A stretch of DNA of 24,000 bases from an uncultured Actinomycetota bacterium (GTDB lineage: Bacteria; Actinomycetota; Actinomycetes; Actinomycetales; Dermatophilaceae): assembly GCA_963834225.1 (NCBI GenBank), contig CAWIAT010000009.1, positions 450,992 to 474,991 on the forward strand, read 5' to 3'. A program made the position numbers and the translations under genes. The notes beneath the pieces were generated by a model. That model was not told where the DNA came from, ran no database searches, and saw nothing but the letters and a program-made list of their open reading frames with translations. Position 1 is the first letter of the stretch; every line of letters begins with the position of its first letter. Below are positions 159-16,467 of this stretch, piece after piece.

Positions 159-307
159 GCTCTCTCCTCGCGAGCTGGAACTGCTCCGCGGGCGCACGAG
201 GGGTGACGAGGACGGCAGGAGGGCGGCGGAGACCGCCACCCGAGGACCCACCAGCTCCCGTCGGCCGTCCCGCGCGACCGTGGAGATGCCGCACCCGGGC
301 GGGCGCG

Positions 308-482
308 GCGCGACTGGCAGGTCTTCGGACTCGTGGGCGTGGCTCGCGCCTCCTACTGCCCGTCGCTTCCCAGGCCCGAAGGCCCAGTGCTCTCGTGACG
401 GGGGTCGTTCCCACTCACCGCTGCGGGGCAGTCCCGGACTCTCACCGGGTTCCCTCTTGCCCCACCACCCGCCCTGACGGCC
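308..482 (-). ncRNA. Cobalamin (AdoCbl/B12) riboswitch in the 5' leader of the nrd gene
   Basis: The reverse complement reads GGTGGGGCAAGAGGGAACCCGGTGAGAGTCCGGGACTGCCCCGCAGCGGTGAG...AGCACTGGGCCTTCGGGCCTGGGAAGCGACGGG...GAGTCCGAAGACCTGCCAGTC. This matches the conserved cobalamin-riboswitch core (AGGGAA..GGTGnnAnTCC..GCTGcCCCGCA, GCCACTG-like, GGGAAG) and the B12 box (AGyCnGgAGACCTGCC). About 150 nt of expression platform follows before the GAGGAG SD. Confidence 0.85.
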
Positions 483-505
483 GGGAGGTGGACCAGCTGC
501 GTGAC

Positions 506-553
506 CCACCATATGTGGGGGTCAGGACCCGGCGCGGGACCCACATGGTGTGG
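506..553 (-). promoter_or_regulatory. Two candidate NrdR boxes (CCAC-N5-GTGG palindromes) in the nrd promoter region
   Basis: The plus strand has CCACCATATGTGG (506-518) and CCACATGGTGTGG (541-553). Aligned to the published NrdR-box consensus acaCwAtATaTwGtgt, they match at about 10/16 and 9/16 positions. One alignment gives a centre-to-centre spacing of 32 bp, which is the typical tandem spacing. They lie between the hisD stop (567) and the riboswitch. Confidence 0.4.
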
Positions 554-4939: not shown

Positions 4940-6277
4940 TCAGAGTCGGGGCAGGTAGCGCTCGAGCTCGAAGGCCGTCACGGTGTTGCGGTAGTCGTTC
5001 CACTCCGCCCGCTTGTTGCGCAGGAAGAAGTCGAAGGTGTGCTCCCCGAGCGTCTCGGCGACGAGCTCGCTGCTCTCCATCACCGTGATGGCCTCGCTGA
5101 GGCTGGCGGGCAGCGGCTTGATGCCCATGGCCCGGCGCTCGGCGTCGGTGAGGCTCCAGACGTCGTCCTCGGTCTCGGGCGGGAGCTCGTAGCCCTCCTC
5201 GATCCCCTTCATGCCTGCGGCGAGCAGGACGGCGAAGGAGAGGTAGGGGTTGCACGCGGGGTCGATGCTGCGGACCTCGACGCGGCTGCTGTTGCCCTTG
5301 TTCGGCTTGTACATCGGCACCCGGACCAGGGCCGACCGGTTGTTGTGGCCCCACGTGAGGTGGGCGGGGGCCTCGCCGCCGCCCCAGAGCCGCTTGTAGG
5401 AGTTGACCCACTGGTTGGTCACCGCGGTGATCTCGGCCCCGTGGTGGAGCAGGCCCGCGATGAACTGCCGGGCGACCTTGGACAGCTGGTAGGGCGACCC
5501 CGGCTCGTGGAAGGCGTTGGTGTCGCCCTCGAAGAGCGAGAGGTGGGTGTGCATCGCCGACCCGGGGTGCTCGGCGAACGGCTTGGGCATGAAGGAGGCG
5601 AAGATGCCCTGCTCGAGGGCGACCTCCTTGATGACGGCGCGGAAGGTCATGATGTTGTCGGCGGTCGACAGCGCGTCGGCGTAGCGCAGGTCGATCTCGT
5701 TCTGGCCCGGGGCGCCCTCGTGGTGGCTGAACTCGACCGAGATCCCCATCGTCTCGAGCATCGAGATCGCGGCCCGACGGAAGTCGTGGCTGTTGCCGTG
5801 CGGGACGTGGTCGAAGTAGCCGGCCTCGTCGATCGGCTCGGGTCGCTGCCCCGGGACCCAGCCCTGCTTGAGGAGGAAGAACTCGATCTCGGGGTGGGTG
5901 TAGAAGGTGAAGCCCTGGTCGGCGGCCTTGGTCAGGGCCCGCTGGAGGACGTGCCGCGGGTCGGCCATGCTCGGCGTGCCGTCGGGCATCGTGAGGTCGC
6001 AGAACATCCGGGCCGTGCCGGGGCTCTCGCCGCGCCAGGGCAGGACCTGGAAGGTGCTCGGGTCGGGCTTGGCGAGCATGTCGGCCTCGTAGACCCGCGC
6101 GAAGCCCTCGATGACCGACCCGTCGAAGCCGATGCCCTCGGCGAACGCCCCCTCGAGCTCGGCCGGCGCGATGGCCACCGACTTCAGCGTGCCGAGCACG
6201 TCGGTGAACCAGAGCCGGACGAACCGGATGTCGCGCTCTTCGATGGTGCGGAGGACGAACTCCTGCTGACGGTCCAT
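4940..6277 (-). CDS. glnA2: Glutamine synthetase, type I, GlnA2-like
   Basis: MDRQQEFVLRTIEERDIRFVRLWFTDVLGTLKSVAIAPAELEGAF... is near-identical in pattern to the mycobacterial GlnA2 N-terminus. The ATG at 6277 is preferred over the upstream GTG at 6295. The glnA2-glnE tandem is conserved actinobacterial synteny. Confidence 0.95.
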   Translation of the reverse strand: MDRQQEFVLRTIEERDIRFVRLWFTDVLGTLKSVAIAPAELEGAFAEGIGFDGSVIEGFARVYEADMLAKPDPSTFQVLPWRGESPGTARMFCDLTMPDGTPSMADPRHVLQRALTKAADQGFTFYTHPEIEFFLLKQGWVPGQRPEPIDEAGYFDHVPHGNSHDFRRAAISMLETMGISVEFSHHEGAPGQNEIDLRYADALSTADNIMTFRAVIKEVALEQGIFASFMPKPFAEHPGSAMHTHLSLFEGDTNAFHEPGSPYQLSKVARQFIAGLLHHGAEITAVTNQWVNSYKRLWGGGEAPAHLTWGHNNRSALVRVPMYKPNKGNSSRVEVRSIDPACNPYLSFAVLLAAGMKGIEEGYELPPETEDDVWSLTDAERRAMGIKPLPASLSEAITVMESSELVAETLGEHTFDFFLRNKRAEWNDYRNTVTAFELERYLPRL

Positions 6278-11850: not shown

Positions 11851-12626
11851 GCACCGGACACCCCCTCGGCATCGACGTCGGCGGCAGTGGCATCAAGGGC
11901 GCACCCGTCGACCTCGACAAGGGCGAGTTCGCCCGGAAGCGGCTGCGCATCGACACCCCTGACGTCTCGACCCCCGAGGCCGTCTGCGACGTCATCGCGC
12001 AGGTCGTCGACCACTTCGACGAGGTCCGCAGCGACTCCCCCATCGGGGTGACGATCCCCGGCGTCGTCCAGCACGGTGTCGTCAAGACCGCGGCGAACAT
12101 CGACAAGTCCTGGGTCGGCTGCGAGATCGAGAAGCTCCTCGAGGACCGCCTCCAGCACGACGTCGTCGTCGTCAACGACGCCGATGCCGCGGGGGTCGGC
12201 GAGCTGCACTTCGGTGCGGCGAAGGGCCACGAGGGCCTGGTCATCCTCACGACCCTCGGCACCGGTATCGGCACGGCCATCTTCAACCGCGGTGTGCTCG
12301 TGCCGAACTCGGAGCTCGGGCACCTCGAGATCGACGGCGTCGACGCCGAGACCATCGCCGCGTCGTCGGCGAAGACCCGTGAGGAGCTCACCTACCCGCA
12401 GTGGGCCGAGCGGCTCCAGCAGTACTACCGGCGCCTCGAGGACCTCCTGTGGCCCGACCTCATCGTCGTCGGCGGCGGGGTGTCCAAGGACGCCGACCAG
12501 TTCCTGCCGCTCCTCGACCTCCGCACGAAGATCATCCCGGCGACGCTGAAGAACAAGGCGGGCATCATCGGCGCCGCCGTCCTCGCGACCGGCGTGCAGA
12601 ACGAGCGCGGGCGCCACACCACCTGA
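11847..12626 (+). CDS. ppgK: Polyphosphate glucokinase (ROK family)
   Basis: The sequence reads [23 protein letters not shown]..., [21 protein letters not shown] and ELGHLEIDG. The ATG overlaps the map stop (ATGA). The product is 259 aa. Confidence 0.9.
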
Positions 12627-12649
12627 CCGGCGGCCGCCCGCCCGACGCG

Positions 12650-13309
12650 CTACTCCCCTGCGCGGAACTCGGTCGCGCCCTGCCCAGCCAGGTCGTGCAC
12701 CCGCGTGTCGGGCGACCCGAGCTGCCCCGCCTGGCCGAGGTAGAGCCCTCGACCGCGCGCCTGGAGCAGCCCGTCGTGCACCGGCACCGCGTGCGGTGAA
12801 CCGAACCGGCGCAGGAACGCCGTCATGTCGCGGCTGCGCTGCCACGGAGCCTGGAGCGGGAACGCGAGCACGTCGATGTCACCCGGCTCGGCGTCGAGGG
12901 CGTCGCCCGGGTGGAAGAACGACGGCTCGCCGTCGGCGTCGAGGCGCACCCCGACGTTGCTGATCCGCGGGATGTCGTCGTGGATGAGGGCGTGCTGCTC
13001 GCCGAAGGGCGTCACGGTGACGCCCCCCACCGTGCTCGCACCCCCGGCGTGCTCGCGCGCCTCGATGCCGAGCTTCGCCAGCACCTCGACGCTCTGCGGG
13101 TCGCAGAGGACGACGGCGCCCGGGTTGGCCGCGACGACCGACGGGAACCGGTCGGGGTCGAGGTGGTCGGGGTGCTGGTGGGTGACGAGGACGGCGTCGA
13201 GGTCGGTGACCCCGGAGAGGTCGTCGGAGAAGGCGCCCGGGTCGATGAGGATGCGGGTGTCGGCCATCTCCACGAGGAGGCAGGCGTGACCGAGGTGGGT
13301 GAGCAGCAT
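12650..13309 (-). CDS. MBL-fold metallo-hydrolase
   Basis: MLLTHLGHACLLVEMADTRILIDPG...VLVTHQHPDHLD carries the HxHxDH motif. The product is 219 aa from the ATG at 13309. The longer 341-aa ORF N-terminus is low-complexity and implausible. Confidence 0.85.
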   Translation of the reverse strand: MLLTHLGHACLLVEMADTRILIDPGAFSDDLSGVTDLDAVLVTHQHPDHLDPDRFPSVVAANPGAVVLCDPQSVEVLAKLGIEAREHAGGASTVGGVTVTPFGEQHALIHDDIPRISNVGVRLDADGEPSFFHPGDALDAEPGDIDVLAFPLQAPWQRSRDMTAFLRRFGSPHAVPVHDGLLQARGRGLYLGQAGQLGSPDTRVHDLAGQGATEFRAGE

Positions 13310-13394
13310 GTCCCCACCGTAGGCCGCCGAGCACGGCCGCAGCGGCCGAGGGTCCCGCCGAGGGCGAGCCGAGGTCAGGCGGCGCCGGAAGGCG

Positions 13395-14087
13395 TCAGCC
13401 GACGACCGGCTCGGCGCCGTTGCCCGAGCGGTCCCGTGCGGCGCCGGGAGGAGTCGCGCTCCTGACGGCGTCGACGGTGACCGCGGCCAGCCGCAGGTCG
13501 CGGGGCAGCACGGTCGTCGAGGGAGGGGGGGTCGGCAGTGCGTGGGCGCCCTCACCGGCGAGGAACAGCGGGACGCGCGCGCCGAGCCGCGACAGCGACG
13601 GCACCCGCGACTCGAAGGCCGAGCGCCGCACCCCCGCGAGGACGACGGCGTCGGCGCCGAGGAAGCGCACGGCATCGGCGACCGCCGTCATCGGGGTGTT
13701 GGCGCCGAGGCTGACGACGCGCCACCACCGGGCGTGGAGCATCGCGCCGAAGAGCTCGAGCGGCAGGTCGTGCAGCTCGCGCGGAGGGCAGGCGAGGACG
13801 ACGGTGCGCACCTGGCCGCCCTGGACGGGCATTCGCAGCTCGCCGAGGACGCCACGGAAGGCGCTGGAGACGAAGTGCTCGTGGAGCACCCCCAGCTCGC
13901 CGCTCTCCCAGCCGTCCCCGACCTCCTTGAGCACCGGCATGATGACGCGGGTCACGGTGTCGTCGACACCGGAGACGAGGAGGGACTGGAGCAGGGCGTC
14001 GCGCACCGTCCCGCCGTCGAGGTCGCGGACCGCGGCCATGACCGTCGCGCGCGCGTCGGCGGGGCCGAAGTGCGGCGACTCGCTCAT
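13395..14087 (-). CDS. Stand-alone cobalamin-binding photoreceptor-like protein (CarH/LitR C-terminal module, no HTH domain)
   Basis: The 230 aa from MSESPHFG align by eye to the T. thermophilus CarH light-sensing module. IMPVLKEVGDGWESGELGVLHEHFVSSAF contains the Wx9EH AdoCbl motif. VVLACPPRELHDLPLELFGAML...GADAVVLAGV corresponds to the ExHxxG-type lower-ligand His region and Rossmann B12-binding domain. No MerR-type HTH occurs upstream in any frame. An alternative start is at 14171. Confidence 0.8.
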   Translation of the reverse strand: MSESPHFGPADARATVMAAVRDLDGGTVRDALLQSLLVSGVDDTVTRVIMPVLKEVGDGWESGELGVLHEHFVSSAFRGVLGELRMPVQGGQVRTVVLACPPRELHDLPLELFGAMLHARWWRVVSLGANTPMTAVADAVRFLGADAVVLAGVRRSAFESRVPSLSRLGARVPLFLAGEGAHALPTPPPSTTVLPRDLRLAAVTVDAVRSATPPGAARDRSGNGAEPVVG

Positions 14088-14559
14088 CGGCGTCCCGCGA
14101 TCTGGCTGGGTTCCACGCCTGAACGGTACGGCACGAACACCCCCCTGAACGCTTGTCGCCGTCCGGGTCATCGCAGGTCAGGGCCCCCGACAGCGCCTCG
14201 ACACGGGGGTCCGGGCTCGTCCACTCGGCCGAAGGGGGCCGCCGTTCGGACGATCTGCGGGGAAAAAGTCGCCGTTCTCGCCCGCCGAGGTGGAACAGTC
14301 CTCCTCAGGTCGACCGACGGACCCCCTGCACCGGACGTCGACCACCGACCGGCACCAGTCCGGTCAAGGACCCCGGTGCGCCGGAGTCGCCGCGTTCCCC
14401 CTGCCCGCGGCGACACCAAACCGACGCACCGGGGTCGACCGCTGTCCGGGCCCGGGGCGAGGACCAGCGAGCGGCCGCTGCATCACCATCACGCTCGACA
14501 GGTGAGCGCCCAGACTTCCCCCTGGCGCGGGCGGTCGGCGGGTCGCCCATACTGACCGG

Positions 14560-15357
14560 ATGACGAGCAACGAGCATCCCCTCCGCACGTCGCTGGACGC
14601 CGCTTCGGGGGTCGACGAGGCCCGGCTGGTCGACGTCAGGCGGTGGAACCTGGGTCTGACGGTGCTCCACGCCGTTCAGGCGCTCGCCGTGCTGGTCCTC
14701 GCCTCGGACTTCGCCATCGACGTGTCCACGGCCTTCCCCGAGGGCCCGCCCGGCAGCCGTGTCCCACAACCCTCGGTTGCCTTCAGCGTGCCCATCGGCG
14801 TGGCCGTCGCCGCCTTCCTGGCGCTGGCTGCCCTCGACCACGGCGTGACGGCCACGGTGCTCCGCTCCCGTTACGAGGGCGACCTGACGGCCGGGATCAA
14901 CCGGTTCCGCTGGGTCGAGTACTCGTTCAGCGCCACGATCATGATCCTGCTCATCGCCTTCTACGCCGGGATCACCCAGGTTGCCGCTGCGATCACGATC
15001 ATCGGGAGCAACGTGGCGATGATCCTCTTCGGGTGGCTCCAGGAGCGCATGAACCCGCCCGGCCGCGCGTCGACCACGATGCTGCCGTTCTGGTTCGGTT
15101 GCATCGCCGGTGCCGCCCCGTGGGTCGCGATCACCCTCAACATCGTCGGGTCCGAGACGGTCCCCGGCTTCGTCTACGGCATCTTCATCTCGCTGTTCGT
15201 GTTCTTCATGTCCTTCGCCCTCAACCAGTACCTGCAGTACCGCCAAGTCGGTCCATGGCGCTCCTACGCCTTCGGGGAGAAGGTGTACCTGGTGCTGAGC
15301 CTGGGCGCGAAGTCCGCGCTCGCCTGGCAGATCTTCGCTGGATCCCTGGCTGGGTGA
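14560..15357 (+). CDS. Heliorhodopsin (inverted-topology microbial rhodopsin)
   Basis: The 265 aa show block-wise near identity to heliorhodopsin 48C12: FRWVEYSFSATIMILLIA, MILFGWLQER, LPFWFGCIAGAAPW, VPGFVYGIFISLFVFFMSFALNQYLQY and YLVLSLGAKSALAWQIFAGSL. The Schiff-base Lys (K251, codon 15310-15312), counterion Glu (E120 in RWVEYS) and the two conserved His (H37, H94) are all present. Confidence 0.9.
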   Translation: MTSNEHPLRTSLDAASGVDEARLVDVRRWNLGLTVLHAVQALAVLVLASDFAIDVSTAFPEGPPGSRVPQPSVAFSVPIGVAVAAFLALAALDHGVTATVLRSRYEGDLTAGINRFRWVEYSFSATIMILLIAFYAGITQVAAAITIIGSNVAMILFGWLQERMNPPGRASTTMLPFWFGCIAGAAPWVAITLNIVGSETVPGFVYGIFISLFVFFMSFALNQYLQYRQVGPWRSYAFGEKVYLVLSLGAKSALAWQIFAGSLAG

Positions 15358-16019
15358 GGCAGGCCGACCACGAACGGGTGAGAGGTGCGGCGCCTCCGGA
15401 CGGTGGCACCGGGCCCGGAACCACCACCCGACCCGAGGCGAGGCGAGGACGCCCTGCGCTCGTGGTCCGGTACGGCGCCCTGGTGGACGAGTCGGGCTGT
15501 AGGCCGGGTTTGGCTCAACACGGTTGGTATTGATGCCGTCCAGGACGCGCCACACGGCCGGCGGGCGAAACCGGGCCCGTGCGTGTGCCGCGAGGCCGGT
15601 GGCCGAGGGCCATAGGAGTGCGGCGCCAGTTCCCGCCGCGATCGCCCATCGGGCCGAGGTGTTGGCGCAGACGTCGGTATGGCTGTACCTCGTGTCGTGG
15701 CTGACATTCGGCCTCCTGCGCCCACGGGCCGGGTCCCCACACTCGTCGCCGGCGCTTCCTGACGGCGGCGCGAATAAGGCAAGCCAGGTCGTCCCTAGCG
15801 CCCCACGGGCGTCAGAACCCTGACCCGGCCAGGTCAGGGAGGCGGCTCGAGGAGGTCGCCTGCCCGGGACAAGGTCTCGCGGGCCTGGCGGACCGTCGCC
15901 GGTCGAGCATCGCCCCATCCGCACCCCGGACGGCACCGTCGCCACTCGCGAGCCCCGCCTGGTAGGAGGCGACGACCTGTCGGGCTGCCCACAACTCGGC
16001 GCGCGTGACGTCACGGCGC

Positions 16020-16415
16020 TGCGCCACGAGAGCACCAGGCCCGACCCGACGACGATGCCGACGAGCGCGGTCCGCGAGGGGCGCGAGCCGAGGGCAAGCC
16101 CGATCGCGAGCGCCCACAACGGCATGCTGGCAATGAGGAGGGAGGCGAGCCCGCTGTCGACGTGCTGCTGTCCCAAGGTGAGCAGGGTGCTGCCGCCCCC
16201 CACGAGGAGGAGCCCCACGAGCGCGGCCGACCGCACCTCCCTGGCGTCCGGCCAGACGCGGCGGCCGAGCAGGGCGGCGCCACGAGGATGAGGGTGCCGG
16301 CCGTGAGGAAGCGTGAGCTCGTGAGCAGCATCGGGGGCAGGGACTCCAGCGCCACCTTGTTGCCGACGTACGTCCCGCCCCACAGGAGGTAGACCCCCAT
16401 GAGCGCGAGCGCCAC
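16020..16415 (-). pseudogene. EamA/DMT-family transporter remnant (frameshifted, 3' half missing)
   Basis: From the GTG at about 16415, the first frame reads VALALMGVYLLWGGTYVGNKVALESLPPMLLTSSRFLTAGTLILVA. At about 16275-16285 the reading switches to another frame: ALLGRRVWPDAREVRSAALVGLLLVGGGSTLLTLGQQHVDSGLASLLIASMPLWALAIGLALGSRPSRTALVGIVVGSGLVLSW. Only about 135 aa (one 5-TM EamA repeat) are recognisable, and similarity ends near 16020. Confidence 0.65.
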
Positions 16416-16467
16416 TGCCCCACCCCGCGCCGAGGGGTGCGGGGTCAGGTGGGTGGCATTCGTCGTC

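Follow-up and report, generated by a model that had tools for sequence, protein, structure and literature searches.

A putative stand-alone photosensor: an intact CarH-type B12 module without a DNA-binding domain in an Oryzobacter-related genome

The DNA analyzed here is a stretch of 24,000 nucleotides (nt), hereafter the window, from an uncultured actinobacterium (NCBI GenBank assembly GCA_963834225.1, contig CAWIAT010000009.1, positions 450,992 to 474,991 of the forward strand), and its subject is a gene at 13395..14087 on the reverse strand (230 codons, TGA stop at 13395-13397) for a CarH-type cobalamin-binding protein that lacks a helix-turn-helix (HTH) DNA-binding domain. The source genome has a completeness of 91% and belongs, by kinship, to Oryzobacter (Intrasporangiaceae, Micrococcales). 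A Pfam scan of the 230-amino-acid (aa) protein detected B12-binding_2 (E 5e-11, above the cut-off, at residues 46-112 of a 258-aa extended frame) together with B12-binding (E 1.2e-6; 28.7 bits, slightly below the cut-off of 32.1) and no domain beyond these two; a globin-like biliverdin-binding domain is likewise absent. The top NCBIfam match is CarH, which is confined to positions 98-251 of the 274 in the model and leaves positions 1-97, the HTH part, unmatched, whereas the models for corrinoid proteins (MtbC/MtgC/MtaC) reached 11-18 bits against cut-offs of 215-450 and those for MetH scored within the same low range. An AF2 model computed with 40 sequences was of high confidence (predicted local distance difference test 92.3, predicted template modelling score 0.86), and in a Foldseek comparison with the PDB the top 13 matches were all B12 domains of Thermus thermophilus CarH (TtCarH), with template modelling (TM) scores of 0.79-0.85 and E values of about 3e-13. 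The gene thus encodes an intact CarH-type B12 module without a DNA-binding domain, which is not of the methyltransferase or mutase type, and an earlier note made from the sequence alone, which had described the open reading frame (ORF) in these terms, was confirmed by the domain scan on both counts.

In the protein a four-helix bundle (approximately residues 9-84) is followed by a Rossmann subdomain (approximately 94-182), a C-terminal helix that is conserved (198-206) and a tail under loose constraint; the B12 module spans residues 9-206, and the AF2 model shows poor order in the tail of about 25 aa. The ratio of nonsynonymous to synonymous substitution rates against three orthologs was 0.09-0.26 for core residues 14-185 and 0.64-0.85 for the C-terminal tail, which points to purifying selection on the core. 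In the orthologs the variable tail ends in a conserved C-terminus, '(A/N)EP(A/V)VG' (13398-13412 in the window), which could be a docking motif. The HMMER alignment with TtCarH has no gaps across the key region. W60 (13908-13910), E70 (13878-13880) and H71 (13875-13877), which make up the Wx9EH cap (codons 13875..13910, reverse strand), align with W131, E141 and H142 of TtCarH and are invariant in alignments A1 and A2. This motif caps the adenosyl group and is a hallmark of the photoreceptor branch that is not found in B12 enzymes (PMC8156234). Within the segment R103-E104-L-H106-D-L-P109 (13761..13781, reverse strand), H106 of 'PPRELHDLP' aligns with H177 of TtCarH in 'PPGERHEIG' and is the predicted lower-axial ligand, so that the adenosylcobalamin (AdoCbl) contacts named in the earlier note, the W and E-H of Wx9EH and the His of ELHDLP as the equivalent of that in ERHEIG of CarH, are indeed retained. 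The signature of light-responsive cobalamin-binding domains derived with SignatureFinder consists of GxxW, EH, GxxH and GxxxP (PMC11796333), and three of these four elements are present in the window protein (G57xxW60, E70-H71 and G128xxxP132); the last of them, the 'GxxxP' loop G128-A-N-T-P132 (13692..13706, reverse strand), whose role is taken from the same study, is also invariant in A1 and A2.

The absence of the DNA-binding head is not explained by a sequence error. A six-frame, stop-tolerant search of the whole genome with the MerR_1 HTH model returned 11 MerR HTHs, none of them in the window, and the in-frame upstream ATG at 14171 would add only 28 residues, which do not form an HTH. 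The orthologs have their starts where the window protein has its own, and the RNase P RNA gene (rnpB) ends approximately 100-190 nt ahead of the start in 14 of 21 related loci, an interval too short for an HTH of 70 aa and a linker. Since no frame contains an HTH, the start is shared with the orthologs and rnpB lies directly upstream in relatives, the gene is not a frameshifted LitR, as the earlier note had also argued, and a hidden upstream HTH was ruled out. A split arrangement with a 'class V LitR' (a MerR protein without a B12 domain) was also considered and rejected; the sole additional CarH-like MerR match in the genome is HspR, which is encoded in the dnaK operon.

Over 200 homologs with lengths of 205-250 aa share at least 69% identity with the window protein; those that bear a name belong to Oryzobacter, Phycicoccus, Ornithinibacter and Fodinibacter, to which the genome search adds Nostocoides. 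The ortholog of O. terrae, of which strain NBRC 109598 is a cultured isolate, is 86% identical. With the clade alignment 80 loci were recovered, 44 of them at 50% identity or more, and the HTH is absent from all 44. Almost every locus with no more than 46% identity was found to be a MerR-fused LitR, which provides a positive control for this HTH test. Among the best 150 representatives of 50%-identity clusters, a MerR HTH is present in 61, about 33 are complete proteins without one, and 13 start within the end of the MerR domain. These 13 relatives (230-285 aa; P0153, P0156, P0166, P0180, P0192 and others) have a conserved start Met in the last MerR helix (M-x3-L-x2-G-L-S-x2-E-A-A), and their starts could be either mis-called or those of internally initiated short isoforms, much as AerR exists in a short and a long form. 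The view in the earlier note that a protein of this kind is unusual in Actinobacteria was therefore overstated, because complete HTH-less proteins account for about one third of the nearest 50%-identity clusters and also make up a whole clade. In a maximum likelihood tree of the B12 module the window protein falls into a clade (Shimodaira-Hasegawa-like approximate likelihood ratio test, SH-aLRT, 99) of 17 rows, or 28 after genome-derived additions, all of them HTH-less; the tree came from a quick search with SH-aLRT support only, its deeper branches are poorly resolved and its root rests on one long outgroup. The clade comprises Intrasporangiaceae and relatives and includes Kytococcus, Mobilicoccus and Agilicoccus. 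When the clade profile was compared with the PDB, the closest matches were TtCarH (2e-26), CtMerR (3e-22) and photocobilins (4e-19), followed at a distance by MetH (6e-11) and corrinoid proteins (1e-7), with AerR (7te2; 0.037, 16.7 bits) last of 26, which supplies the placement relative to CarH, LitR and AerR that the earlier note had called for. Judged by these sequence relationships, the window protein is a member of an old CarH/LitR B12-domain lineage, all members of which lack the MerR domain, and not a one-off truncation. Five family genomes with a completeness of at least 98% have no B12-binding_2 proteins other than MetH and a short HTH-less protein, and four of these five short proteins, from genomes without LitR, fall into the clade of the window protein in the tree. 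Public annotation refers to the homologs merely as 'B12-binding domain-containing protein'. Stand-alone CarH-like B12 domains are mentioned in reviews; no description of the HTH-less lineage was found in the literature searched, outside of which several key reviews lie.

The preferred explanation of these results is a gene for a functional stand-alone CarH-type AdoCbl photosensor module that would act in trans, a reading on which our own judgement is evenly divided. In the dark the protein would bind AdoCbl made from salvaged B12, with H106 as the lower ligand and W60, E70 and H71 capping the adenosyl group, and it would probably assemble head-to-tail as CarH B12 domains do, given the conservation of W60 and P132. 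Green or blue light would then cleave the Co-C bond and change the conformation or the oligomeric state, and because the protein has no DNA-binding domain the signal would be relayed through the binding or release of another protein. The isolated B12 domain of TtCarH is sufficient for AdoCbl binding, for the formation of dark tetramers and for the photoresponse (PMC10442372; PMC11796333), and photosensors that stand alone and control separate proteins are established in the AerR-CrtJ system (PMC9144470), in that of short LOV proteins and class II LitR (PMC9758184) and for photocobilin and its cyclase (PMC10979010); the relay proposed here would follow the same logic.

However, a number of observations weigh against a light-signaling function. 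In TtCarH His132 is the upper ligand in the light state and is required for the break-up of the tetramer (PMC10442372), and the window protein has E61 (13905-13907, reverse strand) in its place; His occupies this position in only 2 of 63 LitR representatives. The light-responsive signature is not fully present, since GxxH reads R103xxH106 with Arg in place of Gly. At the R103 position R, H, G or A occurs within the clade, and Gly in 47 of the 63 LitRs. Similarly, the classic motif ExHx2Gx41SxV/Tx22-27GG reads ExHx2P...AxV...AG (P109 in place of the Gly of ExHxxG, then A151 and A177-G178). The ELHDLP, VLA and LAGxGA pattern is also found in the consensus of HTH-bearing actinobacterial LitRs, and most of these motif changes are thus common to both groups. 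Particular to the clade are an invariant H69 (13881-13883, reverse strand), where 17 of 63 LitRs have His, and V/S immediately ahead of the LG(x)3P loop, at positions occupied by R/T and Y/F in LitRs. Beyond the residues themselves, no conserved gene neighbor or partner was found across the clade, a guessed LitR operator (described below) is absent from the window, which is a weak negative, and the variable gene contexts are equally compatible with a carrier or buffer that has no partner at all.

The genes next to the clade members differ from genus to genus: in one an ABC ATPase and an ABC-2 permease lie upstream, another has a divergent DJ-1/PfpI gene, a third has a LysR gene followed by NmrA-like and DUF2177 genes, and in Kytococcus the neighbors are a histidine ammonia-lyase and a formate-dehydrogenase-like gene. 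The NmrA-like and DUF2177 genes stand beside a clade member in one genome without LitR, and genes of these families are found next to LitR or fused with it in other places, which is a weak hint at a light-response setting. At L027 (4716-7022) a natural fusion protein of 768 aa combines a MerR HTH, B12-binding_2, an NmrA-like NAD-binding domain and DUF2867, that is, a LitR joined to a type of gene that elsewhere adjoins LitR or the HTH-less B12 protein. We consider it a tentative possibility that the HTH-less clade consists of autonomous AdoCbl photoreceptors whose light-switched protein contacts are made with non-transcriptional or non-LitR targets, independently of CarH and LitR; candidate targets would include an ABC-2 exporter in some genera and an unseen regulator in Oryzobacter. 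If true, this would give the B12 photobiology of non-phototrophic Actinobacteria a type of output that is new.

The main rival to a stand-alone photosensor is a protein that buffers, carries or stores cobalamin and protects it from light, holding scarce salvaged AdoCbl for B12 enzymes such as NrdJ, MCM or MetH; it would keep the photolysed cofactor bound and would have no signaling partner. The B12 economy of the organism is in part consistent with such a role. As the earlier note had recognized, cobalamin is relevant to this organism: a cobalamin riboswitch (299-512, reverse strand; 84 bits) lies upstream of the class I nrd large subunit gene, which encodes an ATP-cone-containing ribonucleotide reductase subunit, starts near 158 and extends beyond the left edge of the window, and the genome encodes MetH and a PduO-type adenosyltransferase, by which the cell is able to adenosylate cobalamin. 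CobS and CobD were not found in the genome, and the organism is probably a B12 salvager, although at 91% completeness the lack of biosynthesis genes is unproven. Four B12-binding_2 loci are present in total, namely MetH, a full-length MerR-B12 LitR (contig C2), an MtgC-like corrinoid protein and the window gene. The lack of a conserved partner across the clade and the five nearly complete genomes in which MetH is the only other B12-binding_2 protein also agree with a buffer. On the other hand, the Wx9EH cap, the hallmark of photoreceptors that B12 enzymes do not share, speaks against storage, and the nearest relatives by clade profile are all light sensors; we regard a buffer as somewhat unlikely.

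The window protein might also act as a modulator of the resident LitR, either by forming heteromers with its B12 domain, so that the complexes carry fewer DNA-binding heads, or by competing for AdoCbl, and might in this way tune the light or B12 threshold of the LitR regulon. The genome search for a MerR/LitR partner that the earlier note had suggested did recover this full-length LitR, which is 40% identical to the window protein over 168 aa and is surrounded by CFA-synthase-like, DUF1365-like (assigned solely by inspection of the sequence), amine-oxidase and DUF2177 genes. Its short divergent intergenic region with the amine-oxidase gene (G000:C2:85330-85347; L001 6330-6347) contains GTCAAAT-N4-GTCAAAT, a direct repeat spaced at 11 bp that is unique in the genome at up to two mismatches and is a candidate LitR operator of the direct-repeat kind known for CarH. 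A LitR-like paralog occurs in all 11 sampled family genomes that carry the ortholog (at least 52% identity), and W60 and P132, which are related to the interface, are conserved. However, LitR is common in the family and the genomes are interrelated, which makes the 11 of 11 weak, and the clade-specific V/S beside the LG(x)3P loop differs from the residues of LitRs. Four clade members, moreover, come from the LitR-less genomes of at least 98% completeness described above, which weakens LitR as an obligate partner; the resident LitR is a candidate partner in this genome, but as a general partner of the clade it is excluded. Overall, modulation of LitR appears doubtful to us.

An intact heliorhodopsin gene (14560-15357, forward strand; Pfam Heliorhodopsin E 1e-99, retinal Lys kept) is divergent from the B12 gene across a shared intergenic region of 472 nt, and the two could in principle form one light-sensing unit with two chromophores. 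Of the ancestral upstream region of the B12 gene (14088..14455), the part 14163-14455 shares 86% identity with the equivalent intergenic stretch of Oryzobacter terrae, where a spacer of 31 nt lies between rnpB and this conserved region. In the genome studied here, and only there, the spacer is replaced by a segment of about 1 kb (14456..15484) that carries the heliorhodopsin. The closest heliorhodopsins (78% identity) are from metagenome-assembled genomes (MAGs) of Nocardioides, which belongs to a different order, and those of the host family reach at most 68% in full-length matches and 85% in one partial match, so that the gene was probably acquired horizontally. The pairing does not recur: no heliorhodopsin lies beside the B12 gene in any of the 44 ortholog loci, no B12 domain within 1.5 kb of the heliorhodopsin in 29 other family loci or within 6 kb in 80 wider loci, and heliorhodopsin is missing from both other genomes of the genus. 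Three actinobacterial MAG loci (L025 2095-5558, L026 1938-5597 and L132 ~5016-5132) do combine a heliorhodopsin with a full-length LitR at a distance of no more than about 2 kb, and in L025 and L026 the heliorhodopsin is paired with a fasciclin gene, the pair being divergent from a small ORF and litR; in those organisms heliorhodopsin may belong to the LitR light regulon, although this is rare overall given its absence from the 80 other loci. The functional pairing in the window is therefore largely refuted by comparison, and we consider it very improbable. Promoter and terminator scans of 12400-15700 found nothing, and no convincing shared promoter or operator was seen in the aligned upstream regions of relatives.

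The inserted heliorhodopsin segment is followed by a 26-nt copy of the 3' end of rnpB (15485..15510, reverse strand), while the complete rnpB, which ends with the identical 26 nt, lies approximately 12.3 kb further on, at the window-equivalent positions 27777-28163 (repeat at G000:C9 ~478768-478793; L139 4770-4795). The 12.3 kb between these direct repeats encode OsmC, an alpha/beta hydrolase, an M20 peptidase, an SDR protein, an NMT1-type ABC transporter, a methyltransferase and an OYE-type reductase; no integrase was seen in this stretch, which resembles an old island that had entered the RNase P RNA gene by integration. At its edge, about 1 kb without a convincing ORF (15511-16467), with a weak remnant of an EamA transporter (Pfam E 4e-4), looks like decayed DNA. 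Among relatives (L003-L023) the distance from rnpB to the B12 gene varies from about 100 nt to about 4 kb, and the rnpB 3' end occurs twice in L020, suggesting that the rnpB-proximal site is a recurrent insertion hot spot.

On its other side the B12 gene is followed, after 85 nt and on the same strand, by a gene for a metallo-beta-lactamase (MBL)-fold metal-dependent hydrolase (12650..13309, reverse strand; Pfam Lactamase_B_3 E 4e-18, HxHxDH), and a light-gated regulator of this co-directional neighbor would agree with the order of the two genes, which is kept with a gap of 20-140 nt in about 40 of the 44 ortholog loci. Yet the MBL ortholog is a single-copy gene in 130 of 151 family genomes, compared with 11 of 151 for the B12 protein, and is thus present where the latter is missing; it lies far from the B12 gene in other clade members, and in a Dermatophilaceae MAG the B12 gene adjoins ROK and MAP without an MBL gene. 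Located between rnpB and the conserved MBL-ROK-MAP block, the B12 gene itself looks like an insertion, and the near-universal MBL hydrolase was rejected as an operon partner and is regarded as a syntenic neighbor only, which leaves little credence for its light-gated regulation.

The probability of a decaying LitR remnant, of an artefact of assembly or frameshift or of a corrinoid protein of the methyltransferase type, with which the JGI annotation of some homologs as 'methanogenic corrinoid protein MtbC1' and the B12-binding score just under its cut-off would agree, is negligible in view of the length and start conserved in more than 200 homologs, the selection on the core, the confident AF2 model, the upstream rnpB in relatives, the low corrinoid scores, the lack of a methyltransferase gene next to the window gene and the true MtgC-like protein encoded elsewhere (contig C3), which has DxHxxG and adjoins an MttB-like gene.

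CarH-type B12 domains have been described chiefly as components of repressors or multi-domain enzymes, and they also serve as optogenetic parts. A monophyletic lineage that retains only the sensor, is under selection and has some members in genomes without CarH or LitR raises the question of what the target of a headless B12 photosensor is, and this question is directly testable, since cultured isolates such as Oryzobacter terrae, O. telluris and several Phycicoccus species carry close orthologs. Signature-based mining that requires GxxH would miss the HTH-less lineage.

Among the known systems, CarH and class I LitR (T. thermophilus CarH, PDB 5C8A/5C8D/8C31; CtMerR, 8JBS; and the Streptomyces, Bacillus and Myxococcus homologs) are closest to the window protein, which shares with them the four-helix bundle and Rossmann subdomain, the Wx9EH cap, the lower-axial His and the GxxxP interface loop and finds there both its best sequence match (E 2e-26) and its best fold match. 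In contrast to them it has no MerR HTH and linker and would therefore not repress by itself, and it further differs in the Glu for His132, the Arg for the Gly of GxxH, the invariant H69 and the V/S before the LG loop. The photocobilin SasPcob of Saccharothrix syringae (PDB 8J2W/8J2X) is likewise an actinobacterial CarH-like B12 photoreceptor that stands alone and for which an action through protein-protein interactions was proposed (PMC10979010). However, photocobilins are proteins of about 340 aa with an additional globin-like biliverdin-binding domain. In Pseudomonas mendocina the effector-less photoreceptor PmSB-LOV controls a separate regulator, a class II LitR, in trans (PMC9758184), as is proposed here, although it has a flavin mononucleotide chromophore and an unrelated fold, and its gene is adjacent to that of LitR, whereas the window gene has no adjacent regulator. 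Similar to the window protein, AerR/PpaA of Rhodobacter (PDB 7TE2) is a stand-alone B12 protein of a four-helix bundle together with a Rossmann subdomain in which the cap Trp is conserved, and AerR signals by binding a transcription factor. The sequence relationship is nevertheless marginal, with AerR being the weakest PDB match of the clade profile and not returned when the single sequence was searched; AerR does not have the E-H of the cap, its light-state ligand is the N-terminal His10, and its partner CrtJ/PpsR (TIGR02040) had no match in the genome at its 91% completeness. Of the AerR-like role that the earlier note had suggested, the analogy of architecture thus stands, with an antirepressor or adaptor function as a possibility, while the relationship in sequence and the known partner do not. 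On present comparisons the window protein would be AerR-like in its logic but lies outside the AerR family, and it represents a CarH-type module set apart from CarH and LitR by its missing HTH.

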